Assembly (NCBI GenBank): GCA_946611235.1
Contig: CAMODE010000041.1
Coordinates: forward strand, 8,316 to 72,315
Length of the DNA: 64,000 bases
Source: an uncultured Bacillales bacterium
GTDB taxonomy: Bacteria; Bacillota_I; Bacilli_A; RF39; UBA660
Reading direction: 5' to 3'
The notes below the pieces were generated by a model. That model searched no databases and was not told where the DNA came from. It worked only from the letters and a program-made list of their open reading frames with translations. Position 1 is the stretch's first letter, and the number at the start of each line of letters is the position of its first letter. Shown here in pieces: positions 906-39,672 of the stretch. The position numbers were made by a program, and so were the translations under genes.

Positions 906-1952
906 TTACTCCCTTACAACACGATAGCGCCATGCCATTTTATCATTTATTAGAATAAAATCTGAATAATCATTTCCTTTAATAAAATTAATAGGTTGTC
1001 TAACTTCCGAATGAGCATCAATTAACTCACTAAATTTACTAACATCGACAACATTAAATTTATCTAGTTTTGGCATATTATTTAAATTAACAATAATACC
1101 ATCATATTCTTTTAAGATTTTCTTTATTGTCTTTAAATAAATACTTTGTCTTTCTCCTAATCTTACAAATATTAATGATAACCATATAAACAATCCAATA
1201 CCCAAAGCAAAACTAGATCCTCCACCAATTCTAAGAGCTAATACTGTGCTATCTTTAATAATTGTTTTTTTAGAAGTAATTGCCCCAATATTATTAGTAT
1301 CAGATGTAATACTAATTGGTACTTCAATTGTTGCTTTAGTAAGAGGAATTGATAAGATTGAATAAGACTCCTTCTTCTTATCATCTTTCCCATCTACTTT
1401 ATTTTCTACATATAAAACAACTTTTAAAGTACCATCTAATGATAAATTATATTCTTTCTTAAATTCTAGTAAGATATCATTATATTTTTGGTAATCTACT
1501 TTAATATTTTCGTTAAAATTAATTACTCTAGTGTTTTCATAATCTACTGTTTTTACTTCTGTTAAATTATATTCTTTTTCCCAGAAATTCTTAGTATTAT
1601 CATCAACTTTAGTAGCACTAGCTACTGCTTTTATATAGTAACTATAACTACCTGAAGCAGGTTTATCAAGTATTAAACTATTATTAAAATCTATATCTAA
1701 GTAATCAATTAAACTAGTAATATAAATATTATCTTTTCCTAAATAAGGTTCTTCAAAGAAATTATTTTCTTTTAAATATACTTTATAATCAATAGTATTA
1801 TTTTCTTTATAGTATATACTAGTATCTTCGGTATTAAATAGGCTCTTTTTAAATAGACGAATGCCTACGACTACTGTTATAATGCTAAGTACAAATAATA
1901 TAAAACATTTTAAAGGTAGTTTAACCCTATTAGTTTTATTCTTCTTAGGCAT
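906..1952 (-). CDS. Bitopic membrane protein (DUF5305-like, from memory), partner of SipW/TasA-type operons
   Basis: 348-aa ORF with an N-terminal TM (CFILFVLSIITVVVGI) and a second TM near residue 245. Sits between the SipW-type peptidase and a TasA-like substrate gene. Confidence 0.55.
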   Translation of the reverse strand: MPKKNKTNRVKLPLKCFILFVLSIITVVVGIRLFKKSLFNTEDTSIYYKENNTIDYKVYLKENNFFEEPYLGKDNIYITSLIDYLDIDFNNSLILDKPASGSYSYYIKAVASATKVDDNTKNFWEKEYNLTEVKTVDYENTRVINFNENIKVDYQKYNDILLEFKKEYNLSLDGTLKVVLYVENKVDGKDDKKKESYSILSIPLTKATIEVPISITSDTNNIGAITSKKTIIKDSTVLALRIGGGSSFALGIGLFIWLSLIFVRLGERQSIYLKTIKKILKEYDGIIVNLNNMPKLDKFNVVDVSKFSELIDAHSEVRQPINFIKGNDYSDFILINDKMAWRYRVVRE

Positions 1953-1963
1953 TCTAGCACCTC

Positions 1964-3088
1964 CTAGCTATTAAACCATACTGTTGGATAACCAATATAT
2001 TTAACAATGTATTTAACTGTCCCTAATACATCCTTCTCAGTTATCTTTATTTTATCTTCAGTATTGTTATTGTCCCCCTTAGTTCTAAATGTATAATGCC
2101 CATTATCGTTTACTTTACTTACCACTCTATGGGTTATTATAGAATTACCACTTTTAAAAACCAATATATCCCCTTCATTAATCTTTTCCACTCTTTCTTT
2201 ATAGTAGATAATAGCATCTCCTCTATAATAAACAGGATTCATTGAATCAGACATTATCGCTATCATATGATACTTAAAGATGCCTGATACCAATGCTGTT
2301 ATTATCAAAGTAAATATCAGTATAAAGGAAAATACAAAGTTTCTAAGATATTTTTTAGCATACATATTATATTTTTCTTTATATGTAATATTCTTACTTA
2401 CTTGCTTATAAACAAGATAAGGAAATACTACTCCAGTTACCGCTGTTATATAATTACCTAAATTAGGTAGTATTGGTATAACATAACCCCACAGATTTAA
2501 TGCAAGACTAATTAGAATCGTGGGAAGAGGGCTAACATTATAAGTAATATAACTATATAAAACCTCTCTAGCAATAATTGGAAGGATAATAACACTTGTA
2601 ACTAAAAATATCATTTCATGATTATTTAAAGTCATATTATTAATTGTCATTATCATATTTAAACTTATAATTAATACAGTAAATATAACAACTTGTATTT
2701 TATTTGGATTTTTTCTAAATATTAAGTATCTACATAATTCTACTAAATCAACATATAAGATTATTGGAACAATATTTCTAAGCATTCCAAATAATGAATG
2801 TGAATGTATTGATTTAGCAAATCCAGTAAATAATCCAAGTATATAAAGTACTAAAGTATATAATAGCAACATAATTACTACAGTTTTAGTAGTACTCTTT
2901 TTTAGATAATTCTTATCCTTTGGAAATCCTCCCATTATTATTAAACTAATAAAAAGAATTAACCAAAATCCTAAATTTATATACTCGTAATATTCAAAAT
3001 TATTATCCATAATTAAAAATTTAAATATGATAATAAAGATTAGTAATACTATTTCAATTATATATATCCTTTTTATATTCTTTTTCAT
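1964..3088 (-). CDS. SipW-type (ER/archaeal-type) signal peptidase I fused to a ~260-aa polytopic N-terminal membrane domain
   Basis: The C-terminal ~110 aa carries the SPase boxes SDSMNP (catalytic Ser), ITHRVV (His) and TKGDNN. The N-terminal part has about 8 hydrophobic segments by eye. Confidence 0.75.
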   Translation of the reverse strand: MKKNIKRIYIIEIVLLIFIIIFKFLIMDNNFEYYEYINLGFWLILFISLIIMGGFPKDKNYLKKSTTKTVVIMLLLYTLVLYILGLFTGFAKSIHSHSLFGMLRNIVPIILYVDLVELCRYLIFRKNPNKIQVVIFTVLIISLNMIMTINNMTLNNHEMIFLVTSVIILPIIAREVLYSYITYNVSPLPTILISLALNLWGYVIPILPNLGNYITAVTGVVFPYLVYKQVSKNITYKEKYNMYAKKYLRNFVFSFILIFTLIITALVSGIFKYHMIAIMSDSMNPVYYRGDAIIYYKERVEKINEGDILVFKSGNSIITHRVVSKVNDNGHYTFRTKGDNNNTEDKIKITEKDVLGTVKYIVKYIGYPTVWFNS

Positions 3089-3169
3089 ACTATCACCTTG
3101 TTAATGGGTGAGAGTTCTGTCAAAAGACAGAACACTCCCATTAAAACATCTAAGAATAATCATTCTTAA

Positions 3170-3757
3170 TTAAAATCCAGCATCAACATAACTTAAAGTA
3201 GCTGATAAATTTAGTGGCCCCAAATCATTTTTTAATAAGTCAGATTCACCAGCAGGAACTTTATACATAATCTTTACAGTAACATTAACAGTTCCATTCT
3301 TTTTAGCAAGGACAGGTCCATCACTAATTGAAGTGTTAGTGGAATTGTAAACAGTTGAACCATAAGTAAGCGTATAATCTACATATTTAGCATTTTCTTC
3401 AGATACTCCAGCTAATGTAACACCAGTTAATCTAGCATCGATAGTACCATCATTTACGACAGTTGTCGTAAATTCATAATAGTCACCAGGTTTAGCTAAA
3501 GTAACATTATAAGTACTTAATGTAGTGCCCGCTTCATCTACTGTTGGTGCAGCTGTAGGATCAACACTACCGTCAGCTTTTTTATAAGCACCTTCACCTG
3601 TTTTAACAAAGTGTACACTCCATTTAGCAGCAGTTAATGTAGCATTACCATTGATATTTAAATTTTGGTTGAATGCGGCGAAACCTACTGCCATAACTAA
3701 GATAGCTACTGCTAGCACTCCTATGATTGCTGTCTGAACATGTTTTTGTTTTTCCAT
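3170..3757 (-). CDS. TasA/camelysin-like secreted protein with SipW-dependent-type signal peptide
   Basis: AGGAGG RBS 9 nt before ATG at 3757 (the ORF track extends to 3793). N-terminus MEKQKHVQTAIIGVLAVAILVMAVGFAAFNQNLNINGNATL has an AAFN motif as in TasA. Beta-rich, Thr/Val-rich body. Confidence 0.65.
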   Translation of the reverse strand: MEKQKHVQTAIIGVLAVAILVMAVGFAAFNQNLNINGNATLTAAKWSVHFVKTGEGAYKKADGSVDPTAAPTVDEAGTTLSTYNVTLAKPGDYYEFTTTVVNDGTIDARLTGVTLAGVSEENAKYVDYTLTYGSTVYNSTNTSISDGPVLAKKNGTVNVTVKIMYKVPAGESDLLKNDLGPLNLSATLSYVDAGF

Positions 3758-3832
3758 TTTTTCATCTCCTCCTATCATATATAATGATATCACAAATAGA
3801 TAAAAGGTGTCAATTAGTATTAATCTTTTTTT

Positions 3833-19600: not shown

Positions 19601-20029
19601 TTACCTCCTAATTAAATAATCAATTACCCTTTTATCTTCTTTTAGAAATTGAAGATTTAAACTTAAATTATTAAACTTATACTTCAAAGGAAGATCTACT
19701 TTTATTAAAATAGCCTGATAGGTATTTGTATTGTCACTTATATACTCACTATCGATCATAACTACTTGAAACTTATATTTAACTTTATTAATTATAACTT
19801 CATTGTTACTTATTACATAATCTATATCATCTAGAGGCATATATACTCGTATATAATAGTCTGTATCTTTCTCTACTATTCCTTTTACCTTATAATAAGT
19901 TTTATAATGAAATAAAATCATAAATATAATTAAGGAAAGTGAAATAATTATTATTATCATTATATAAACATATATTAAAGGTTCTACTTTTTTAGCTAGT
20001 ATGATTTCACTATCTATATAATACTTCAT
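19601..20029 (-). CDS. Short membrane-anchored bacteriocin export accessory protein (truncated HlyD-like?)
   Basis: 142 aa with an N-terminal TM followed by a beta-rich domain. Its start overlaps the ABC transporter stop by 4 nt (ATGA coupling). Confidence 0.45.
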   Translation of the reverse strand: MKYYIDSEIILAKKVEPLIYVYIMIIIIISLSLIIFMILFHYKTYYKVKGIVEKDTDYYIRVYMPLDDIDYVISNNEVIINKVKYKFQVVMIDSEYISDNTNTYQAILIKVDLPLKYKFNNLSLNLQFLKEDKRVIDYLIRR

Positions 20030-22107
20030 ACAACACCTCTTTCATAATTTTTAAGTTTCCCATTATTTATTTCAATCAGTCTATTATATAAGTCCATATT
20101 ATCTTTTCGATGAGATATAATAATAAATGTCTTATCCTTATACTCATTAAAAATATTCGTAAGAATCTTCCTTTCTAAATTAATATCTATTTCATTTAAA
20201 CCTTCATCAATCATAACTATATTACTATTCTTAAGTAAACTTCTAGCAAGTATTATTCTTTGTCTTTGACCACCTGATAAATTAACACCATTCTCTTCAA
20301 GCATATAATCATATCCGAGTATATTGTTTTTTATTATTTCATCAGTATAAGTTAGTTTACATACTTTTAAAAAATCCTCATCAGATACACTTCTATCCAT
20401 AATAATATTATCTCTGATACTGGAAGTAAATAGTATTTCATTTTGTGATATATAAGTAATACTACTTCTTATATCACTTAAACTATAATCATTAATATCG
20501 TAATTATTAATATATATTTTGTCCCTATCGACACTATAAAACTTATAAAGTAATTTCATAATCGTCGATTTACCACTACCAGAACTACCTAGTATTAGTA
20601 CTCTATCTCTTTCATTAATATAAAAATTAATATTATTAAAGACATCGTTTTTATTATTGTATGAGTAACTAAGATTATTAAAAATAATTTTACCTTTTAC
20701 TTTTAGTCTTTTTTTATCATATACCCTTTCTTCTTGTACTTCTAATAAATTATTAGCTCTAATAATAGAATTATTAACATAATGGTATTCACTTATTACA
20801 TCAATAATTCCTTTAACAGGAGTAATAATATAGCTAGTTAATAATGTTATTGTCATATAATTACCTATTGATAATGTATTATTAATAATTAATCTAATAG
20901 TTAAGTAGCTAACAAATAGTAGACCAATATCCGATATCATTTCTTTCACGATTATTAAAATATTCTCAGTAGTCTGTTTCTTATAAGAAGAAGTAAGTAA
21001 CTTAGCGTATTTTTTAGAAAAAGTAAGAATAATATTATCTTCAATATTAAGACCCTTTATACTTTCAAAAGCACTCACAGATTCTACAATATAACTATTA
21101 ACATTAGATGTGTTTTTTTGAAGTTCTTTTGTATACTTTTTTATTGGGTAATTAAAAATAAGTATTACAATAATATACATAAAAGATATTATAAATAGTA
21201 TGAAAAGAATCTTTCTACTTATAAAATACATAATACATATTCCTCCAATAAAGATAACAGTATCTAAAAATATACTTAAAATTATTTTTGATACAAAGTT
21301 CTTTATTGCATATAAATCACTTATTCTTGATAACACCTCACCAGTAGTTTTATTCTTATAGTAATAGAAAGGAAGTAGAATTACTTTCGTAAATGCATTT
21401 ATTATAATACTAATATCTAATTTTTGATTTAAATAAATCAAAAGATAATTACGAATATAACTTGTAACTAATTTTATTATATACAAAACAGAGAACAAAA
21501 TTGTTACTATCGTTATATTACTAATAGTAGTATCAATAACTTTATCAAATACTATTTGCGAATAGAAAGAACATATACAAGTTAAAAAGGTAAATGTTAG
21601 GGATAATATTAATAAAAATATAATCGTACTCTTATTTCTTAATATTACGCTTATTATTGCGTCATTTATTGGTTTATCTTCTCTATATATGGGAAGACTT
21701 TTGATTTTTTCAAATAACATAATATTACCAGTCCATATATTAGTAAAATCGAACAAATCAATTATTCTTTTACCAATTGATGGATCCATAATAAGTGCTT
21801 TGGTATCATATATTTTATATACTACTATAAAATGCATATAATTTTTATTATTTATTTGGGCAACAAAAGGAGTATTAATCTTATCTAATTTAATATCACC
21901 ATCTACTTTATAGGACTTTGCCCTAAGTCCCACTTCATTAGACGCTTCACTTAAATTATAAAAGTTAGTTCCTTCTTTATCTGTCTTTGTTAAATTTATT
22001 AGTCTTTCTAACGATACATCACCTCCATAATATCTAATAATTGATAATAGACAGGCCGCTCCACAATCCTTATTACCTTCCTGTAAAACAATTAAATTTT
22101 TTCTCAT
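20026..22107 (-). CDS. Peptidase C39 domain-containing bacteriocin ABC transporter (ATP-binding/permease)
   Basis: N-terminal C39 QEGNKDCGAACLLSIIRYYGG (catalytic Cys), a 6-TM region, Walker A GSSGSGKST, signature LSGGQRQR, Walker B VMIDEG. Confidence 0.92.
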   Translation of the reverse strand: MRKNLIVLQEGNKDCGAACLLSIIRYYGGDVSLERLINLTKTDKEGTNFYNLSEASNEVGLRAKSYKVDGDIKLDKINTPFVAQINNKNYMHFIVVYKIYDTKALIMDPSIGKRIIDLFDFTNIWTGNIMLFEKIKSLPIYREDKPINDAIISVILRNKSTIIFLLILSLTFTFLTCICSFYSQIVFDKVIDTTISNITIVTILFSVLYIIKLVTSYIRNYLLIYLNQKLDISIIINAFTKVILLPFYYYKNKTTGEVLSRISDLYAIKNFVSKIILSIFLDTVIFIGGICIMYFISRKILFILFIISFMYIIVILIFNYPIKKYTKELQKNTSNVNSYIVESVSAFESIKGLNIEDNIILTFSKKYAKLLTSSYKKQTTENILIIVKEMISDIGLLFVSYLTIRLIINNTLSIGNYMTITLLTSYIITPVKGIIDVISEYHYVNNSIIRANNLLEVQEERVYDKKRLKVKGKIIFNNLSYSYNNKNDVFNNINFYINERDRVLILGSSGSGKSTIMKLLYKFYSVDRDKIYINNYDINDYSLSDIRSSITYISQNEILFTSSIRDNIIMDRSVSDEDFLKVCKLTYTDEIIKNNILGYDYMLEENGVNLSGGQRQRIILARSLLKNSNIVMIDEGLNEIDINLERKILTNIFNEYKDKTFIIISHRKDNMDLYNRLIEINNGKLKNYERGVV

Positions 22108-22226
22108 TCTACCTCCTCATAGTAATATCAGTCAAAAGGTACCCATTTCTGTAAAAATTTGATAAATTTCTTTAAAAAAATGCAAAATTTGACACTTTTT
22201 TGTGTAAAGCAAACAATAAAAGCAAA

Positions 22227-22256
22227 CAAAAAAATACTCTATCATAAGATAAAGTA
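22227..22256 (-). terminator. Rho-independent terminator after the TasA-like gene
   Basis: Minus strand reads TACTTTATC-TTAT-GATAGAGTA (1 mismatch) followed by TTTTTTT. Confidence 0.55.
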
Positions 22257-22283
22257 TTATAATAAATTACAAATAGTAGCAGA

Positions 22284-22889
22284 TTACGATCCTAAATTAG
22301 TTTTATCAGAAGCTTCTCCAGTGATATCACATACTAAACTAAACTGATAAGTTTGATCGGTCATATCAGTAGGATTTCTTCCCATAGTACCATCTATCCA
22401 TAAATATAAGGTAAACGCATAATCAGTATCATAAGCTAAATTTTCCATATTATTACTAAAAGTAATAGTATCTCCTGCATCTTTTCCTTCAAAGTTACCG
22501 CTGCCATATCTTACACCAGTAGTAGTATTTACAAGTTCATATTTAAATGATTGATGTTTCAACCCGGTTGTAACTGTTTCCTGAGTATTAATACTATCAA
22601 TAGTTAATGTCCAAACAATATATGCATACTCAGATAATGTTTGTTTAGCATCAATATTTACGATCCTACCATTATTTCTATTTGATACTGGCCATAATAA
22701 TTTTTGATTATCGGCAGTTTTATCACACTGACCTAATCCATTAACTGAAGATACTTCAATCGTAGCATCTTTATTTTCAGAAGTACTACTCCAGGCAAAA
22801 TAAGCATATGTACCCAGTACAGTTAATACTCCCAGTAATAATACCCCAAGTATTATAAATAAAGTTTTTCTTAATTCTTTCTTTTCCAT
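22284..22889 (-). CDS. TasA/camelysin-like secreted protein with SipW-dependent-type signal peptide
   Basis: MEKKELRKTLFIILGVLLLGVLTVLGTYAYFAWSSTSENKDATIEV. The GTYAYF motif is typical of TasA-family signals. Confidence 0.65.
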   Translation of the reverse strand: MEKKELRKTLFIILGVLLLGVLTVLGTYAYFAWSSTSENKDATIEVSSVNGLGQCDKTADNQKLLWPVSNRNNGRIVNIDAKQTLSEYAYIVWTLTIDSINTQETVTTGLKHQSFKYELVNTTTGVRYGSGNFEGKDAGDTITFSNNMENLAYDTDYAFTLYLWIDGTMGRNPTDMTDQTYQFSLVCDITGEASDKTNLGS

Positions 22890-30705: not shown

Positions 30706-30912
30706 TTATAAAGAAATCTCTCCAAGTCTAATAAGCTCCACAACAGCAGATGCTCTACCCTTAACCCCAAGTTTTTGCATTGTATTAGAAATATGATTTC
30801 TAACTGTTTTTTCACTAATACCAAGAACTTTTGCTATATCTTTTGTCGACTTATTATTTACTAAGAGATCAAATACTTCTTTTTCTCTTTTTGTTAAAAT
30901 CCCACTATTCAT
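30706..30912 (-). CDS. gerE: Sporulation transcription factor GerE (LuxR-type HTH)
   Basis: LTKREKEVFDLLVNNKSTKDIAKVLGISEKTVRNHISNTMQKLGVKGRASAVVELIRLGE is near-colinear with B. subtilis GerE (from memory). Confidence 0.88.
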   Translation of the reverse strand: MNSGILTKREKEVFDLLVNNKSTKDIAKVLGISEKTVRNHISNTMQKLGVKGRASAVVELIRLGEISL

Positions 30913-30996
30913 AAATACCTCACTTCCCTACTGGGTGAATTACGTTTTCATAATATTGTATTCGTTTTTCCACATTAAGTGAGGTTTTTTTAACCA

Positions 30997-31479
30997 TTAT
31001 TTGTTAAATTTAACTGAAATATACATTTTATTATCAAATTCATTTTGGACAAGTCTCATAATATTATTAGCAGTACTAGTGTTAGAATCTTCAGAATCAA
31101 GAACCACTCTGACATTGTCACCATCAATTTTTACAAAATTTTCGCAATTGCATAATTCTTTAATTTTATTTTCTAATGTTTCTTCTTTTGAAGAGGTCTT
31201 ATTTATCAATTTAAGTTCATCAAAAAGGTTATTCTTTTCATCAGAAGAAATATCTTTGCGTGTTAATTTGCTCTTTAAATCATCAATTTCTTTCATAACA
31301 TTAGCATCATCTTCAAGTTTCATGCTTGCTATTAGACTGACATCATCAATGACAATGTTATCCTCTTTTGCAACAGTACTAGAATCAAATACATCGCTTG
31401 GCATAGTAACATAATAAATAGATAATACAAGCACTAAACTAAATAAAGTTAAAAACCATAAATTTTTCTTGTTAATCAT
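30997..31479 (-). CDS. SpoIIIAH-like family protein
   Basis: N-terminus KKNLWFLTLFSLVLVLSIYYVTMP resembles SpoIIIAH (WLLTMLSLVVVLSVYY). 160 aa. Confidence 0.6.
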   Translation of the reverse strand: MINKKNLWFLTLFSLVLVLSIYYVTMPSDVFDSSTVAKEDNIVIDDVSLIASMKLEDDANVMKEIDDLKSKLTRKDISSDEKNNLFDELKLINKTSSKEETLENKIKELCNCENFVKIDGDNVRVVLDSEDSNTSTANNIMRLVQNEFDNKMYISVKFNK

Positions 31480-31977: not shown

Positions 31978-34900
31978 TCAATTACACATTTCCCAATCGG
32001 AATTATTTTCACTCTTTTTATATTGACATTGTCCATTATAACATCTTCCTTGCTTATTACCAAAAACACATTGATTATCATTACTACATGCTCCACACTG
32101 ACCAACAGGTGAAGTACCTCCAGAACTAGAAGAGCAATTTGGTTTTGAAGAAACTAAATAGTCTCCACTTACATAACAGTTAGAACTAGCATTATAATAC
32201 CAATTTCCTGTATAAGACTTTACTAAGCCAGGCAAATAGGTTCCACATCCAAAATATGAAATAGTTGAATGACTGGTTGAAGGACCACTTCGACATTTTA
32301 TGCCACTAACAGCATTAACATAGCTTCCTACAGCAGTATTTGCGTAATATTTAAAATACTTTATATCATCAGCGCAATTACCAACATTATCACATATCGT
32401 GGCTTTATATTTTCGATATCCACCATTATCGACTAGATTATCAAAAACATAATTGTTTCCGCTAGAAACGCCACTCAAAGCATATCCGCCAGCAGTAGGA
32501 AATGCTTCATTTAAAGATTCAGAACTATGATTATTAAAAAAGTATCTACCAGTAGAATTTATTCCACTAAATTGATCTGAAGCAATCCATCTAAGTGTTG
32601 GTTTAAAAGTAAACCATTTCAAATCATCACTTGGAGCCGAACTATAATAAGTACTGCTAGCAACTGTATTTCCATTTAGCAATTGAAAACTAACGCTTGG
32701 AGGTACTTTATCTATTTTAAAGAACACTTCACTATCAGTACAATTTCCTACATTATCACATATATTAAATTTAACATAACGATATCCACTAGATGACATC
32801 TTAACACTAAATTTTCCATTTGAATCACCAGTTTTTGATGCTGTAGAATTAATATCGGTAGATAATGTGCTTAAACCCGTTTTATTATATGAAATATTAT
32901 CTTTTAAATTTATATTAATTCCACTTAAAGAGTCAATAGTATCCCATTCAAGATAAAGAGAATTATTAATCCACTTTAAATCATCTGATGAACTAAGTCC
33001 ATAGATATTACTATTTAAATTAACAATTTCACCATCCGATCCGTTTTTCCTAACATTAACAGTGAATGTTGGTTTGATAAAATCGAGCCTCAAAAACACA
33101 TTACTTTCCGCACAATTTCCAGCTTCATCACAAGTTTCAAACTTAACATGTCTATATCCACTTGAACTAACATCAATAGCAAATGGTTCTTTAATTTGAT
33201 CACCATTGTAAACAATTCGAGTTAATGGATTAGAATTTAAAGAATTTAAATTAATTTTATTGTAAGAAAAGGCCTGTTCTTTAATTCCACTTCCATTTTC
33301 CACCGAAGTCCATTCGAGTTTAGGGACATAATTAATCCATTTTGGTACCGAAGCTTGCATCAAACTATATTCATTGCTTGAAGGGGATACTACATTATTG
33401 TTATGCTTCATGCCAAATGAAATAGTAGGTTTTGTTTTATCTATTCTAATATATGTAGAACTTTCTTCCGAACAATTACCAGCATTATCACATGCTCTCA
33501 CATAAACTGGCTCATTTCTTTCCGCAGAAAAAGGAGTTGTTACAAAATCTTCAACAGAAGAATTAGCATATGTATGCCATGAATGGCCTTTGTAACGATA
33601 TTGATAATATGCAATTCCTGATAAATTATCTGCACTATGTAAAGTTAGGGAAAAACTATAATTAACCCACTCTTCATTAGAAGGATTATCAATAATTGGA
33701 GCACTAGGAGGAGTCGAATCTAATTTAGATATATATTGCGTTTCTCCACAATAAGTTGACCCAATTTTAGTTCTAGCAGTATAAGTATGTATTCCTTCAG
33801 CTGGAAAAATAGGATTACTATAAGTTTGATAGTCACCATCATCTATCTTATATTCATAACTTGGATTTCCAACATTTTCACTAGTTATTGTTAAAGTATG
33901 CCCACTATTATGCCATTTTTCAGAAGCAATTCCATCACTCGGAGTAATAATTGGTGATAAACAGCTACTACTTTCCCAATTAACAGAAAGCACCACAGTA
34001 CAATTATCCTCTTTAGCATTACAGAAAGAATCCGAATTATAATTATCTACCTGATTATATGTTTTACCAAGACATTCCCCAGAAATACATTTCCATACAC
34101 TTCCAGTAGAAACAGTAAACCCAGGATTAGTAATTTTCATATATTCCCCATTGTTATATTTAGGCAAATCTTTTTCTTCATTATATAAAATGCTAAAGAA
34201 ACTATCTGTATATGTGTTACCATTGTCTTTTGATCTAGAAATTATTCCATTACTAGAATTAATTTCCCATAAATACTTAGTTCCATCATCCGAAATTGTT
34301 GAACTTTTAATCGAAGCCCCTTCCCCAGCATTAAACTTAATAATAACCTTATATTTAGCCTTCCACATAGCATATAAAGTCACACTATCTGATGATGTTA
34401 AGTTATATACAGTATCTTTATTTTTATACGTTTTTCCAGATAAATCACTCTTAGTATTCCAACCTATAAACTTATAACCATCTTTACTAAATCCATTTTC
34501 ACTTAAAGTACAATTTTTACCTCTAACACATGTCGTACTAGGAGTGCTACCATCTACTCCATTTGTATTAGCATTATAATCAATTGTATAATTATCTACT
34601 TGCCACTGAGCATAAAGAGTAATTGTATCTTCACTATAAGAATTAATAGCGTCTCCTGCCAAATAATTCATACCACTCCCATCTGGTTCTGTATTCCAAG
34701 AAACAAAGCGATATCCTACTCTTTTAGGCTTCAAAGGGCTAACATATGTTACCATACAATTTTCTTCAGTACATATTTCAGCCATCTGATCAATTGGAAC
34801 ATTTTGATTATCACCATCTGAATTATATTCATAATGAATAGTAAAAAACTTAATATCACATAAATCTTTCAATTCAGTAGCATCATCTTCCAAAAAATCA

Positions 34901-35253
34901 ATACTATTAATTGTATATTTAGTTGCATCCCTAACAACAGTTATGATTAAAGAATCACCATATTTTTCACTAGTAGCTTCTTTTTTTAATAACCCAACAT
35001 TCTTAAGTCTTTGAATAGTAGTACAAAAATATTGACTATTATTAAGTTCTTTCCAATCATAACTATTAGCTTCACTAGAATATATTCTAGCAGCTTCCAT
35101 TATACTTGTTTCATTTAAAACAACCGTTTTTTCTTTGGCACTCTTATATGCATTAATAATACCATATCCAGATAATCCTAAAACTAAAGAAGTAACCACT
35201 ATTACTGCAAGTAATTCAACTAATGTAAAACCTTTCCTATTTAATTTCTTCAT
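31978..35253 (-). CDS. Giant modular type IV pilin-like surface protein (1091 aa)
   Basis: MKKLNRKG/FTLVELLAVIVV class III signal. Then 2 Listeria-Bacteroides (Flg_new) repeats (GYRFVSWNT...TLYAQW, GYKFIGWNT...TLYAMW) and 4-5 Ig-like modules ending CDxxGNC / IDKxxP. Ends with an SH3b-like segment and a 6-Cys tail. Confidence 0.85.
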   Translation of the reverse strand: MKKLNRKGFTLVELLAVIVVTSLVLGLSGYGIINAYKSAKEKTVVLNETSIMEAARIYSSEANSYDWKELNNSQYFCTTIQRLKNVGLLKKEATSEKYGDSLIITVVRDATKYTINSIDFLEDDATELKDLCDIKFFTIHYEYNSDGDNQNVPIDQMAEICTEENCMVTYVSPLKPKRVGYRFVSWNTEPDGSGMNYLAGDAINSYSEDTITLYAQWQVDNYTIDYNANTNGVDGSTPSTTCVRGKNCTLSENGFSKDGYKFIGWNTKSDLSGKTYKNKDTVYNLTSSDSVTLYAMWKAKYKVIIKFNAGEGASIKSSTISDDGTKYLWEINSSNGIISRSKDNGNTYTDSFFSILYNEEKDLPKYNNGEYMKITNPGFTVSTGSVWKCISGECLGKTYNQVDNYNSDSFCNAKEDNCTVVLSVNWESSSCLSPIITPSDGIASEKWHNSGHTLTITSENVGNPSYEYKIDDGDYQTYSNPIFPAEGIHTYTARTKIGSTYCGETQYISKLDSTPPSAPIIDNPSNEEWVNYSFSLTLHSADNLSGIAYYQYRYKGHSWHTYANSSVEDFVTTPFSAERNEPVYVRACDNAGNCSEESSTYIRIDKTKPTISFGMKHNNNVVSPSSNEYSLMQASVPKWINYVPKLEWTSVENGSGIKEQAFSYNKINLNSLNSNPLTRIVYNGDQIKEPFAIDVSSSGYRHVKFETCDEAGNCAESNVFLRLDFIKPTFTVNVRKNGSDGEIVNLNSNIYGLSSSDDLKWINNSLYLEWDTIDSLSGININLKDNISYNKTGLSTLSTDINSTASKTGDSNGKFSVKMSSSGYRYVKFNICDNVGNCTDSEVFFKIDKVPPSVSFQLLNGNTVASSTYYSSAPSDDLKWFTFKPTLRWIASDQFSGINSTGRYFFNNHSSESLNEAFPTAGGYALSGVSSGNNYVFDNLVDNGGYRKYKATICDNVGNCADDIKYFKYYANTAVGSYVNAVSGIKCRSGPSTSHSTISYFGCGTYLPGLVKSYTGNWYYNASSNCYVSGDYLVSSKPNCSSSSGGTSPVGQCGACSNDNQCVFGNKQGRCYNGQCQYKKSENNSDWEMCN

Positions 35254-37506: not shown

Positions 37507-37983
37507 TTATACTAAAATACTATTTTCTTCTTCCATTATCTCTTTAATTCTATCAATATCTGTAAAAAACAAATCTAAGCCATTTTCTTTTAGTGATAAC
37601 ATATATTTAAAATTATCAATTATTTCTTTTTCAACAGGAGTAGAAACTCTTATCTGTTTACCTTCAATCGTATGGATATTTTTTATATATTTTTTTAATG
37701 TAGGAAATGCATTCTGAATTAAAATAACTTCTTCAAGTCCTGAAATATTTCTTATTAATATGGTTCTGCAATTACCATATTTATTTATTTTATGTTTAAT
37801 AATTTTTTTATATTTATCTATTTTAGAACTAAGTGGTATAAACCATAAAATATCTCTATCATTAATAGCTAAATAAGAAGGTCTCGACTTACCGTTATCA
37901 TGATTAATCATAATACTTTTCTCATTTATTTTTTCAAAAAACTCATCTTTAATATGATATAAATAACCAGTTTTAACTTCCAT
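37507..37983 (-). CDS. Type III toxin-antitoxin system toxin, ToxN/AbiQ/CptN-like endoribonuclease
   Basis: Contains MEVKTGYLYHIKDEFFEKIN...GKSRPSYLAI...WFIPLSSKIDKYKK, resembling the ToxN/AbiQ family core. GGTGA RBS before ATG at 37983 (the ORF track extends to 38004). Preceded by an RNA repeat array and a terminator. Confidence 0.7.
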   Translation of the reverse strand: MEVKTGYLYHIKDEFFEKINEKSIMINHDNGKSRPSYLAINDRDILWFIPLSSKIDKYKKIIKHKINKYGNCRTILIRNISGLEEVILIQNAFPTLKKYIKNIHTIEGKQIRVSTPVEKEIIDNFKYMLSLKENGLDLFFTDIDRIKEIMEEENSILV

Positions 37984-38087
37984 TTTCTTATCACCAATCC
38001 TCATTTAATATTTATTATATATAATCGAAAGAATAAAGTCAAGAAATATTTTACCATTTATAAACAAATGTTTGCTATATTTTTGCA

Positions 38088-38119
38088 AAAAGAAAAAAGT
38101 TCTTATAAAATAAGAACTT
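38088..38119 (-). terminator. Rho-independent terminator between antitoxin repeats and toxin gene
   Basis: Minus strand reads AAGTTCTTA-TTTTA-TAAGAACTT (9-bp stem) followed by TTTTTCTTTTT. Confidence 0.8.
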
Positions 38120-38120
38120 T

Positions 38121-38237
38121 AAGGCATTTACAACCAGGATCATTTATTGCTCGCACCACCTGGAAGCGATTAACATTTCACGACCGGGATCATTTATTGC
38201 TCGCACCACCCGAAAGCGATTAACATTTAATGCCTTG
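38121..38237 (-). ncRNA. Type III antitoxin RNA repeat array (2 full 50-nt repeats + partial copies)
   Basis: 38131-38180 and 38181-38230 share an identical GGATCATTTATTGCTCGCACCACC core and GCGATTAACATTT. Locally GC-rich. Compensatory stem change between copies (CCAGG/CCTGG vs UCGGG/CCCGG). Confidence 0.75.
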
Positions 38238-38256
38238 TCTTAATAAAGACACCTAT

Positions 38257-38285
38257 AATATACACCATAATTTATTAAAAGTCAA
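38257..38285 (-). promoter_or_regulatory. Promoter driving antitoxin repeats and toxin
   Basis: Minus strand reads TTGACT - 17 nt - TATATT, about 20 nt upstream of the first repeat. Confidence 0.55.
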
Positions 38286-38287
38286 TA

Positions 38288-38644
38288 CTATATCCATTTA
38301 CTTACCACAATATTTCTAACCCTCTCATTCTCATAATTATCATCATATCTAATAATCTTTCTAATTAATTTATTCGTCTTTTTATAACTATTTAAATCAA
38401 TATCACGAATATTAATAATACTCTTTAATCCCTTCCTATAATTATAATCACTAACATACTTATACATACAACTATCAACTAACATAATCTTATCTTCATC
38501 CTTATAACTAAAAACATAATCTTTATAAAAATCAATTAATTCAAAAGATATAATATCATCATCTTCATAATTAATAATATCATCATAATACCTACAAATA
38601 CTAAGTACTTTCCTTACATTATCCATATCAATAGTATGTATCAT
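38288..38644 (-). CDS. Hypothetical 118-aa protein
   Basis: ORF only, Asp/Tyr/Ile-rich; no motif recognised. Confidence 0.45.
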   Translation of the reverse strand: MIHTIDMDNVRKVLSICRYYDDIINYEDDDIISFELIDFYKDYVFSYKDEDKIMLVDSCMYKYVSDYNYRKGLKSIINIRDIDLNSYKKTNKLIRKIIRYDDNYENERVRNIVVSKWI

Positions 38645-38719
38645 AATCTCTCCTTTATATTAATTAAATTATAAATAAAAGAAAAAAGTCTGTAAAGGCT
38701 TTCGACAAAACTAGATATA

Positions 38720-39672
38720 TTATTTAAATACTAATTCATTATTATTTAAAAGATTATCTATTATATTATTATATAATTCTTTATCATTAATCTCATTAAT
38801 TGAAGTAATCCTACTACCAGAATCTTTAGAAGAACTACCACAGTGAAATATCTTTTCACTTTTCATACCATAATCAAGTATTATATATCTATCATGTATA
38901 ATATTATTCGTTACTTTAAAAATAATATTAATATTTGGATAATCCTTAATAAAATCTTCATATTCTAATCTATGTAATTTATTATTTACATTATCACTAA
39001 AGATCGTTACTTTTATTTTACTATCTATATCTTTTAATAATACTAAAGTTTTTAAATTAATATAATCATCAATAATATAAATACTCTTCTTAGCCATACT
39101 ATATATTTCACTATAAATATTATCCGACTCTACTCTTCTTCCATTTAATATTAATATTTCTTTAAGCTTATTACTACTATTAAATTTATCATTAATTATT
39201 TTCATTTCTTTTCTTATTTCTTTTATATCCTTAGTATTCTCATTAGTTTGAAGAGATAATTTAAGAATATCATCATAGCTTACTAAATTATTATTATTCT
39301 CTATAATATAATCTTTCATTTTCTTAAATATTCTAATTAATGCCTTACTCTGTATAGTAGCCTTTTCACCTTTTAATACAGTCATTAACATATATATACC
39401 TTGCTCGGTAAAAACGTAAGGAAGTTTTCTTCTTCCCCCCAACTTGATGTGGATTTTTTGAACATCAAGTTTTTAAATTCTTCTTCAGTTAACTGAAACA
39501 TAAAATCACTATCAAATTTATTCATATTATTCTTTACTTGCTTGTTAAAATCTCTAGTCGCATATCCATATATTTCAGCAAGGTCGCTATCTATCATAAC
39601 CTCTTTACCACGTATAATATATATTTTATTCCTAATACTTTTCTCATCTATTAATGCTATATCATTTTTCAT
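38720..39672 (-). pseudogene. ORF6N (KilA-N-like) DNA-binding domain protein with PLD-like C-terminal domain, split by a -1 frameshift in a G6 tract
   Basis: ORF 39385-39672 ends ..KKSTSSWGEEENF. ORF 38720-39442 begins GGRRKLPYVFTEQG. The joined SSWGGRRKLPYVFTEQG is the conserved ORF6N core. Poly-C at 39435-39440 on the plus strand. Confidence 0.7.

Follow-up and report, generated by a model that had tools for sequence, protein, structure and literature searches.

That type 4 filaments can gain functions through modular pilins has been recognised only recently, and single-module examples are the only ones studied. In PilB and PilC of Streptococcus sanguinis, both of about 50 kDa, class III signal and small pilin module are fused to a non-pilus module, which is a vWA domain in PilB and a lectin domain in PilC. 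Here, we describe a 1,091-aa protein encoded on the minus strand of a 64-kb stretch of DNA (contig CAMODE010000041.1 of assembly GCA_946611235.1; called the window in the following, and the reference for all positions), which belongs to an uncultured Bacilli lineage of the sheep rumen with a GC content of about 26%. The window lies within a 98-kb scaffold of a sheep-rumen metagenome (data set AUXO01, Shi et al. 2014). The protein shares with PilB and PilC the fusion of class III signal and small pilin module to non-pilus modules, as well as the monoderm host and the proposed display at a filament tip. It differs in carrying a multi-domain stalk instead of one globular module, and its gene is an orphan beside priA, not located within a pil operon. 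To our knowledge, modular pilins have not been described to possess a polymorphic cassette at the C-terminus together with a cognate partner gene, as observed here. With modest confidence, we regard the protein as a giant modular type IV pilin, i.e., a fibrillar surface protein that is anchored by its pilin module rather than by sortase and LPXTG and that forms a cognate pair of tip and partner.

Modular pilins were defined by Raynaud et al. 2021 (PMC8179133), whose catalogue distinguishes 264 architectures among more than 1,200 such proteins; the one presented as most extreme is 860 aa long. The initial annotation of the window held that described modular pilins are far smaller than the present protein. 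With 1,091 aa, and relatives of up to 1,683 aa (2,043 aa in a protein library), the catalogued extreme is indeed exceeded, but the claim needs softening, since the architecture as such, N_methyl followed by two Listeria-Bacteroides repeats (IPR012902-IPR013378-IPR013378), is listed with 9 proteins in Dataset S1 of that study and was thus known before our analysis. New are the strong purifying selection on the pilin module, the hypervariable tip, the cassette of tip and partner, the one-to-one correspondence of their types, and the orphan, priA-linked locus.

In the fibrillar adhesins of Firmicutes, Flg_new is established as one of the domains that make up the stalk (Monzon et al. 2022, PMC9210967). 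Our protein resembles these adhesins in its repeated-domain stalk with Flg_new, in a putative binding region distal to the anchor and in its fast evolution. The stalk is composed of two Flg_new repeats, one module with four cysteines (4-Cys module) and five beta modules, and is followed by a distal SH3b domain and a C-terminal cysteine knot, both predicted to bind. The anchor, however, is non-canonical: fibrillar adhesins are held by a C-terminal LPXTG or another wall anchor, whereas here the pilin module is N-terminal, so that the polarity is reversed and the binding end lies at the C-terminus.

In its conserved N-terminal stalk, junction, recombining C-terminus, co-varying downstream gene and tandem pairs, the system also resembles the polymorphic toxins CdiA-CT/CdiI, Rhs and LXG. 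It differs from them in that no toxin or immunity domain is recognisable, in a variable part of down to 39 aa, and in a partner that is a membrane-anchored ectodomain protein, mostly of one homologous family. We know of no polymorphic toxin with a prepilin export signal, and our literature search found none. A further parallel is provided by the VARTIG proteins of Thermococcales (Makarova et al. 2021, PMC8416519), whose function is unknown and for which a role in conflict or self/non-self recognition was proposed. They are large secreted multi-Ig-type proteins, likewise with a recombination-driven hypervariable C-terminus and small, mostly transmembrane (TM) proteins encoded downstream, but they are archaeal and unrelated in sequence, have no pilin-type N-terminus, and are accompanied by more complex downstream gene sets.

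Identity of the N-terminus

The open reading frame (ORF) is complete from ATG to stop codon, and its domain anatomy (Table 1) proved real and as initially described. The N-terminus, MKKLNRKG/FTLVELLAVIVV, had been read as a canonical prepilin motif with Glu5. This holds, with 25.3 bits against Pfam N_methyl (cut-off 21.2) and 20.2 bits against TIGR02532 (cut-off 16.3), and with K7, G8, T10, L11, E13 (= Glu5), L14 and L15 invariant in 19 homologues of down to 34% identity. All parts of a class III signal are present in MKKLNRKG/FTLVELLAVIVVTSLVLGLSGYG, namely a basic leader up to Gly, about 21 hydrophobic residues and Glu at +5. A six-frame scan of the 64 kb finds the motif twice, each time at an ORF start. 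Chance or misannotation of the motif is ruled out by its conservation across the family.

At the motif level, the protein thus appears to belong to the type IV pilins. In hhalign, the pilin module aligns to a pilin from a Metabacillus pilus operon over residues 6-63 (probability 97.6%, E = 4e-12), so that the similarity takes in the whole helix alpha1 of about 55 residues, beyond the hydrophobic motif. An AlphaFold2 (AF2) model of the module (pLDDT 78) has helices at residues 11-41 and 48-60 and then four strands, a topology of alpha1 plus four strands that would be pilin-like; Cys77 and Cys132 are invariant. The ComG equivalogs of NCBIfam align with the N-terminal helix only and score 15.7 (ComGC), 13.9 (ComGD) and 13.2 bits (ComGF) at cut-offs of 70-80, and accordingly the protein is not a member of the competence minor pilins (ComGD/GE/GF/GG) by these cut-offs. 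As in modular pilins, the IPR012902 motif is combined with at least one non-pilus domain, here two Flg_new, one OmpL47-type barrel domain and SH3b.

Stalk, SH3b domain and cysteine knot

The two Flg_new repeats, also known as Listeria-Bacteroides or InlB B-repeats, were confirmed by Pfam PF09479 (E = 2.6e-15) and by TIGR02543; they span approximately aa 138-218 and 219-299. The subsequent cysteine-containing segment turned out to be a discrete 4-Cys module of about 130 aa, of which relatives have 1-4 copies per protein. A divergent Flg_new was considered for this module and rejected (hhalign probability 9.7%, first strand only). The tandem Ig-like modules of the initial annotation stand insofar as five pairwise related modules are found (A 432-517, B 518-613, C1 614-733, C2 734-857, C3 858-975), C1-C3 matching each other in pairwise BLAST at E = 1e-10 to 1e-24. 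Their CDxxGNC hairpin, however, occurs in four of the five and not in all, and a search of PDB sequences gave no match in favour of an Ig-like fold. Module B matches an OmpL47-type barrel domain of NCBIfam with 46.5 bits (cut-off 40).

For the SH3b-like segment, sequence and predicted fold both confirm an SH3b-type cell-wall-binding domain. A family-profile search matches the SH3-like wall-binding structures 8b2f, 8b2h, 8b2s and 8b2g of the PDB (E = 8e-5 to 1e-3). The model of this part (pLDDT 85-93) finds exclusively bacterial and phage SH3b domains as top matches in Foldseek (2kt8, 8b2g, 4krt, 2krs, 9ovi; probability about 1.0, root-mean-square deviation 2.2-3.1 Å), while Pfam SH3_3 matches in relatives only, with E = 2.7e-5 and below the gathering score.

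The tail with its six cysteines exists as stated before, and its framework, C-x2-C-x5-C-x8-C-x4-C-x13-C, is conserved across the family. The additional proposal of a knottin- or EGF-like minidomain finds no support: the cysteine pattern could be assigned to no family, the 39 aa match nothing in Pfam and NCBIfam, and a fold search with the model (beta-hairpins, pLDDT 65-78) returned no knottin or EGF match, its results being dominated by SH3b. Two previously unannotated domains are thereby defined, one being the 4-Cys module of the stalk, the other the knot at the C-terminus, including the KPNCSS junction. Altogether, the protein has 30 Cys, nearly all in local pairs within domains (CDxxGNC hairpins, four in SH3b, six in the knot), which implies extensive extracytoplasmic disulfide formation in a presumably strict anaerobe.

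A polymorphic tip exchanged with the partner gene

Polymorphism is seen in the knot and, in other lineages, extends to the entire C-terminal domain; the variable part is recombined together with the downstream gene as one cassette. This polymorphism, which we rate the most interesting property of the protein, was not mentioned in the initial annotation. For the comparison of codons and identities we used the closest relative, P0002 at locus L126, the PriA of which is 96% identical. The two giant pilins are 88% identical as a whole, and the identity declines from the N- to the C-terminal end, which is what one would expect if the tip is distal and exposed: 100% in the pilin module, 83-99% along the stalk, 74% in SH3b, and 31% in the knot, where still all Cys are kept. 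In terms of synonymous (dS) and nonsynonymous (dN) divergence and their ratio omega, no part of the protein is under stronger constraint than the pilin module (dS 0.08, dN 0.003, omega 0.04). The values for SH3b are dS 0.76, dN 0.14 and omega 0.18; linker and knot together (34% aa identity) give dS 0.60, dN 0.85 and an omega of about 1.4 over 49 codons. The partner gene (55% aa identity) shows dS 1.40, dN 0.37 and omega 0.26. Its dS compares with 0.10-0.54 in five housekeeping genes (PriA, SpoIIIAH, GerE, deacetylase, SepF); for SpoIIIAH, GerE and deacetylase, dS is within this same range, dN is 0.009-0.022, omega 0.04-0.09 and the identity 96-98%.

On the nucleotide level, the stalk shows 82-100% identity; from position ~32160 through knot and partner the value drops to 35-53%, and from ~31515 it is 98% again. 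The breakpoint at ~32160 coincides with the conserved KPNCSS-Gly/Ser junction and that at ~31515 lies just past the stop codon of the partner, which delimits an exchanged cassette of about 630 bp. The same pattern emerges, across all fetched loci, from 128 pairs of loci with pilin modules of at least 90% identity: all 74 pairs with the same tail type have the same partner type, and 51 of the 54 with different tails have different partners. Clustered tails and partners map one-to-one, with 12 real types; four different pilin clusters share one and the same tail-partner pair, whereas a single pilin cluster occurs with three pairs. A human-gut lineage provides an independent instance with the junction ...GTVDRDTLRxC, in which one tail type is a non-knot domain of about 110 aa with its own, non-homologous partner. 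Thus, as in polymorphic toxin systems, a variable C-terminus is swapped along with the gene downstream of it.

The partner gene is the conserved downstream neighbour of the giant pilin, also in L040, where the intact pair is beside neither priA nor SpoIIIAH. Partners are single-pass membrane proteins with an ectodomain of about 100 aa and an invariant Trp, two invariant Cys and an invariant Tyr. Lipocalin_4 matches weakly in 3 of 11 partners (best score 22.9 bits, cut-off 22.4), and a profile search against the PDB gave no match.

These observations suggest a pilus-anchored device for strain-specific recognition or antagonism between cells. As no toxin or immunity family is detectable, recognition or adhesion on the one hand and antagonism with immunity on the other both stay alternatives. 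The latter, in its strict form, would be a pilin-anchored polymorphic toxin: SH3b would target the peptidoglycan of neighbouring Gram-positive cells, the C-terminus, be it the 6-Cys knot or the EHTHVW-type domain of gut relatives, would act as an envelope effector, and the partner would confer immunity. The organisation agrees with it: the trafficking and stalk part is conserved, as is the junction (KPNCSS-Gly/Ser or GTVDRDTLRxC), the C-terminus can be swapped, and a small downstream gene co-varies. Tandem pilin-partner pairs with different tails, as seen in several gut genomes, fit as well. Bacteriolysins and endolysins typically use SH3b for targeting, and an extracytoplasmic, membrane-anchored partner is what one would expect for immunity to an effector acting outside the membrane, for which TelC/TipC of Streptococcus intermedius are a precedent. 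Nevertheless, we consider a toxin with immunity distinctly improbable. No toxin family was found in the tails (Pfam for five tail types, for tail type 0 also NCBIfam) and no immunity family in the partners (Pfam and NCBIfam; five types at E<=1 and 11 alignment members at E<=0.1). In addition, 39 aa are very little for a toxin, a releasing peptidase domain is missing, members without partner would be suicidal with a real toxin, and most partner types are homologous to each other, whereas immunity families are usually unrelated.

A wider version leaves the role of the partner open between immunity and kin recognition: a contact-dependent, strain-specific system on type 4 filaments of Bacilli from gut and rumen, with a recombining C-terminal allele (an SH3b-targeted knot or another domain), whose membrane-anchored, lipocalin-like partner is either an immunity protein against an envelope effector or an allele-specific receptor for kin recognition. 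We put it forward tentatively, as a possibility clearly weaker than that of the giant modular pilin as such. If true, this would be the first case of a prepilin signal exporting a module that resembles polymorphic toxins or greenbeard systems.

Distribution of the family

The family comprises proteins of 558-1,683 aa (complete ORFs) in uncultured, low-GC, spore-forming Bacilli of the rumen and the human gut, usually encoded directly downstream of priA. Homologues with N_methyl and Flg_new are numerous. A metagenome scan yielded 78 loci with the family-specific 4-Cys module, many of them from the human gut, and in the fetched loci 61 complete family ORFs of at least 500 aa begin with [KR]G[FY]TL[IV]ELL, while few family ORFs lack this motif. 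In a library of 1.84 billion proteins, the 4-Cys module is found in 549 representatives at 50% identity, the largest relative among the library representatives being the one with 2,043 aa. About half of the top representatives with this module have a class III signal and the rest a Sec-type or TasA/SipW-type signal, from which we conclude that 4-Cys modules are shuffled between surface proteins.

Several gut genomes carry two family genes in tandem. In six human-gut loci (L091, L093, L095, L102, L103, L105), two complete pilin-partner units are located downstream of priA, in the order giant pilin with tail type 2, partner type 1, a pilin of 558-1,083 aa with tail type 0, and partner type 0. 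PriA orthologues are 75-92% identical and the giant pilins 41-59%, so that of these two neighbours the pilin changes far more rapidly than the housekeeping protein.

Filament or membrane anchor

Two further pilin-like genes, overlooked by the initial annotation, are located 2.6-3.4 kb downstream of the giant pilin. The product of the first, of 132 aa, has ComGC as best NCBIfam match (E = 1e-9, under the equivalog cut-off) and aligns with the giant pilin module over residues 7-73 (hhalign, 96.7%). Synteny of this gene extends to L003, L042 and L126, and the protein is a candidate for the major subunit of the presenting filament. Beside it, in relatives as well, a gene for a 146-aa pilin-like protein without Glu5 is kept. 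According to a review, tip complexes of type 4 filaments are capped by a subunit lacking Glu5, and by analogy the 146-aa protein may be a tip or capping subunit.

This neighbourhood recalls the Com pilus (ComGC-ComGG), given the ComGC-like protein, the adjacent gene without Glu5 and the presence of ComEA and ComEC in the lineage, the latter two being only indirect evidence. It differs from the Com pilus in that ComG matches are far below the equivalog cut-offs and neither comGA nor comGB is located nearby. No Com minor pilin with grafted stalk modules is known to us.

We propose the following sequence of events for the giant modular pilin. A prepilin peptidase encoded elsewhere in the genome would cleave the protein after Gly8, whereupon the pilin module with alpha1 would insert into a short type 4 filament or cap it, at the tip or the base. 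As its main subunit, this filament would probably have the ComGC-like protein of 132 aa, the gene of which is located about 3 kb downstream, and possibly the Glu5-less 146-aa protein as its cap. The stalk of about 950 residues (two Flg_new, one 4-Cys and five beta modules) would project through the cell wall and display, at the distal end, SH3b for peptidoglycan binding and the disulfide knot of 39 aa. Tip and partner ectodomain would be a cognate, physically interacting and allele-specific pair. This pair may mediate a strain-specific interaction of envelopes, either in recognition or adhesion of cells or in the delivery of an envelope effector and protection from it.

Several facts weigh against this proposal. 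Neither inspection of all ORFs nor BLAST finds PilB, PilC or PilD in the window, as had been noted initially; around about 85 family loci, up to a distance of 10 kb, BLAST detects neither a prepilin peptidase nor an assembly ATPase or a platform protein, and no pilus machinery is encoded in the 10 kb past the right edge of the window (locus L046). Consequently, filament assembly is inferred. Foldseek with the N-terminal model retrieves no solved pilin from the PDB (best E = 0.14), small heads with a long helix being poorly matched in general, and the AF2 model breaks alpha1 at residues 42-47. A subunit of 1,091 aa is too bulky for the body of a filament, which leaves the tip, the base or the membrane as feasible locations. 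As for the cassette, many loci are near-duplicates, so that the pair counts do not represent independent events, and about 4-5 independent swaps are evident. The omega of the tip comes from 49 codons, and since their dS is elevated, it mainly indicates that alleles were exchanged. In some members (P0010, a group of 847 aa), the partner gene is missing, and the interaction of tip and partner is suggested by their co-variation only.

The references for machinery in these searches were the proteins of the Metabacillus pilus operon (L006) and PilB from candidate phyla (Patescibacteria/CPR). L006 originates from a contig scan with the pilin-module alignment, which returned mostly unrelated pilins owing to the generic N_methyl pattern. 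PilB, PilT, PilC, PilD and PilM, sought by Walker-A motif and BLAST, occur in none of the family loci, their matches being confined to unrelated loci in the range L006-L037, namely L006, L007, L012, L019, L022 and L029. Dispersed pilin genes seem to be typical of these lineages: L008 and L011, from metagenome-assembled genomes of other low-GC Bacilli, contain more orphan and modular pilins scattered among housekeeping genes with no machinery near, e.g., one of 458 aa with a Gly-rich C-terminal region, one of 323 aa, and one of 131 aa preceded by a 142-aa TM protein. About 1 kb past the right edge of the window (L046, 9002-9217), a 71-aa ORF upstream of spoIIGA and a sigma-factor gene matches Flp_Fap (Tad-type pilin) weakly; it may be a mere small hydrophobic protein.

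The lack of machinery near the family loci would also fit a rod that stays in the cytoplasmic membrane. The class III signal, cleaved or uncleaved, would then be a signal-anchor only, the stalk would span the wall, SH3b would bind the cell's own peptidoglycan, and the partner might hold the knot at the membrane. Nine or ten beta modules would, by our estimate, roughly span a Gram-positive wall; SH3b commonly binds the wall type of its producer; the partner is itself membrane-anchored; and since the 4-Cys module is also found behind Sec or TasA-type signals, the modules need no pilus. What such a rod explains poorly is the invariant Gly-1 together with the membrane-embedded Glu5, with alpha1 and head at an omega of 0.04. 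Furthermore, at least two additional pilin genes are kept, which would be useless without peptidase and machinery, and the hypervariable tip argues for exposure to the outside and not for burial at the own membrane. For these reasons, we rank a plain membrane anchor as less likely than the giant modular pilin, and on the whole as rather unlikely. Regarding the extreme modular pilin that was postulated initially, the class III-signal protein with adhesin-type stalk modules and SH3b stands, but a pilin fold was not recovered by Foldseek and no peptidase or ATPase has been located.

Gene neighbourhood and sporulation

The coordinates of all features are compiled in Table 1. The window encodes spoVAC/AD/AE-, SpoIIIAH- and GerE-like genes, hence the host probably is a spore-former. 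An orphan gene for a SpoIIIAH-like protein of 160 aa, followed by gerE, is located away from any spoIIIA operon; this couple is found directly downstream of the pilin-partner pair in many relatives (L002-L005, L042, L126).

Table 1. Parts of the giant pilin and other features of the window.
Feature	Residues	Window position	Strand	Remarks
Giant pilin ORF	1-1091	31978..35253	-	ATG to stop
Class III (prepilin) leader MKKLNRKG	1-8	35230..35253	-	cleavage predicted after Gly8; N_methyl and TIGR02532 above cut-offs
Pilin module	9-137	34843..35229	-	hydrophobic alpha1N with Glu5, alpha1C, small beta-sheet domain
Two Flg_new stalk repeats	138-299	34357..34842	-	PF09479, TIGR02543
4-Cys module	300-431	33961..34356	-	discrete domain of ~130 aa, family-specific, absent from Pfam
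Five tandem related beta modules	432-975	32329..33960	-	alignment, pairwise BLAST, NCBIfam
SH3b-type cell-wall-binding domain	976-1041	32131..32328	-	4 Cys; ends in conserved KPNCSS junction
Gly/Ser linker and hypervariable 6-Cys C-terminal knot	1042-1052, 1053-1091	31981..32130	-	5' half of exchanged cassette
Partner gene	141 aa	31535..31960	-	N-terminal TM anchor and lipocalin-like ectodomain of ~100 aa, two invariant Cys; 3' half of cassette
SpoIIIAH-like gene and gerE		30706..31479
146-aa pilin-like protein	146 aa	28935..29375	-	MKLNKKG/FAITAVLYG, no Glu5; class III-like leader; no Pfam family
132-aa canonical pilin	132 aa	28524..28922	-	MSKKG/FTLVEALL with Pro22; Pfam N_methyl 27 bits; ComGC-like
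DUF5305 protein		906..1952	-	three-gene cluster 906..3793
Signal peptidase, S26/S24-type		1964..3088	-	three-gene cluster
Protein with TasA/camelysin-type signal	207 aa	3170..3793	-	three-gene cluster; weak DUF11 match
TM protein	142 aa	19601..20029		overlaps exporter 3' end by 4 nt
Bacteriocin-type ABC exporter		20026..22107	-	N-terminal C39 peptidase
Protein with TasA-type signal	201 aa	22284..22889	-
Mobile-element or defence-like remnants		37507..39672		ORF6N/Rha-type fragments at 38720..39672
Leucine-rich-type repeat protein	688 aa	44682..46748	-	no Pfam match; C-terminal TM helix
Mobile-element or defence-like remnant	337 aa	53002..54015		Pfam Virulence_RhuM in L046; beside smc

The position of the giant pilin raises the question of a role in sporulation, i.e., of a surface or appendage component of mother cell or forespore for which the GspE/GspF-like proteins SpoIIIAA/AB might provide the handling. 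In several loci, pilin, partner, SpoIIIAH-like gene and GerE recur in this order, the window holds the spoVAC/AD/AE-like genes, and SpoIIGA lies just upstream of a sigma-factor gene at its right edge. Yet the pilin-partner pair is found without SpoIIIAH or GerE in L040 and L038. Even between strains with swapped cassettes, SpoIIIAH and GerE keep 96-97% identity, which places them outside the variable unit, and the 60-nt gap after the housekeeping gene priA holds a plausible vegetative extended -10 promoter, judged at the consensus level only. Like the plain membrane anchor, a sporulation role is less likely than the giant modular pilin; we regard it as very improbable.

Other features of the window

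The three-gene cluster near the left end contains, apart from the DUF5305 protein and the 207-aa protein, a SipW-like signal peptidase fused to a multi-TM N-terminal domain. Signals like that of the 207-aa protein recur in the 201-aa protein and in L011, and some carriers of the 4-Cys module use a TasA-type signal instead of the pilin signal. The bacteriocin-type exporter is encoded just downstream of the 201-aa protein, and the region 20026-22889 may be a unit for peptide export or immunity. The 688-aa protein carries tandem leucine-rich-type repeats of about 20 aa (LNGLTTAEGLILPPNIKILY...); there is an overlap of its gene with that for phosphoketolase, at the 3' end of the latter. The mobile-element or defence-like remnants are situated between housekeeping genes, and their region varies among the syntenic relatives L003, L042 and L126.

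Biological significance

The family shows that a pilin module can bear a full fibrillar-adhesin stalk of more than 1,000 residues. Being swapped along with a cognate membrane protein, its distal tip is comparable in behaviour to the variable ends known from polymorphic toxins or from self-recognition systems. Metagenomes of the human gut and the rumen commonly contain the family, within a lineage that has no cultured representative. If tip and partner truly are a cognate pair, type 4 filaments of Gram-positive gut bacteria would be linked to recognition or antagonism at the level of strains, and a compact pair, consisting of a 39-aa knot and an ectodomain of about 100 aa, would be available.

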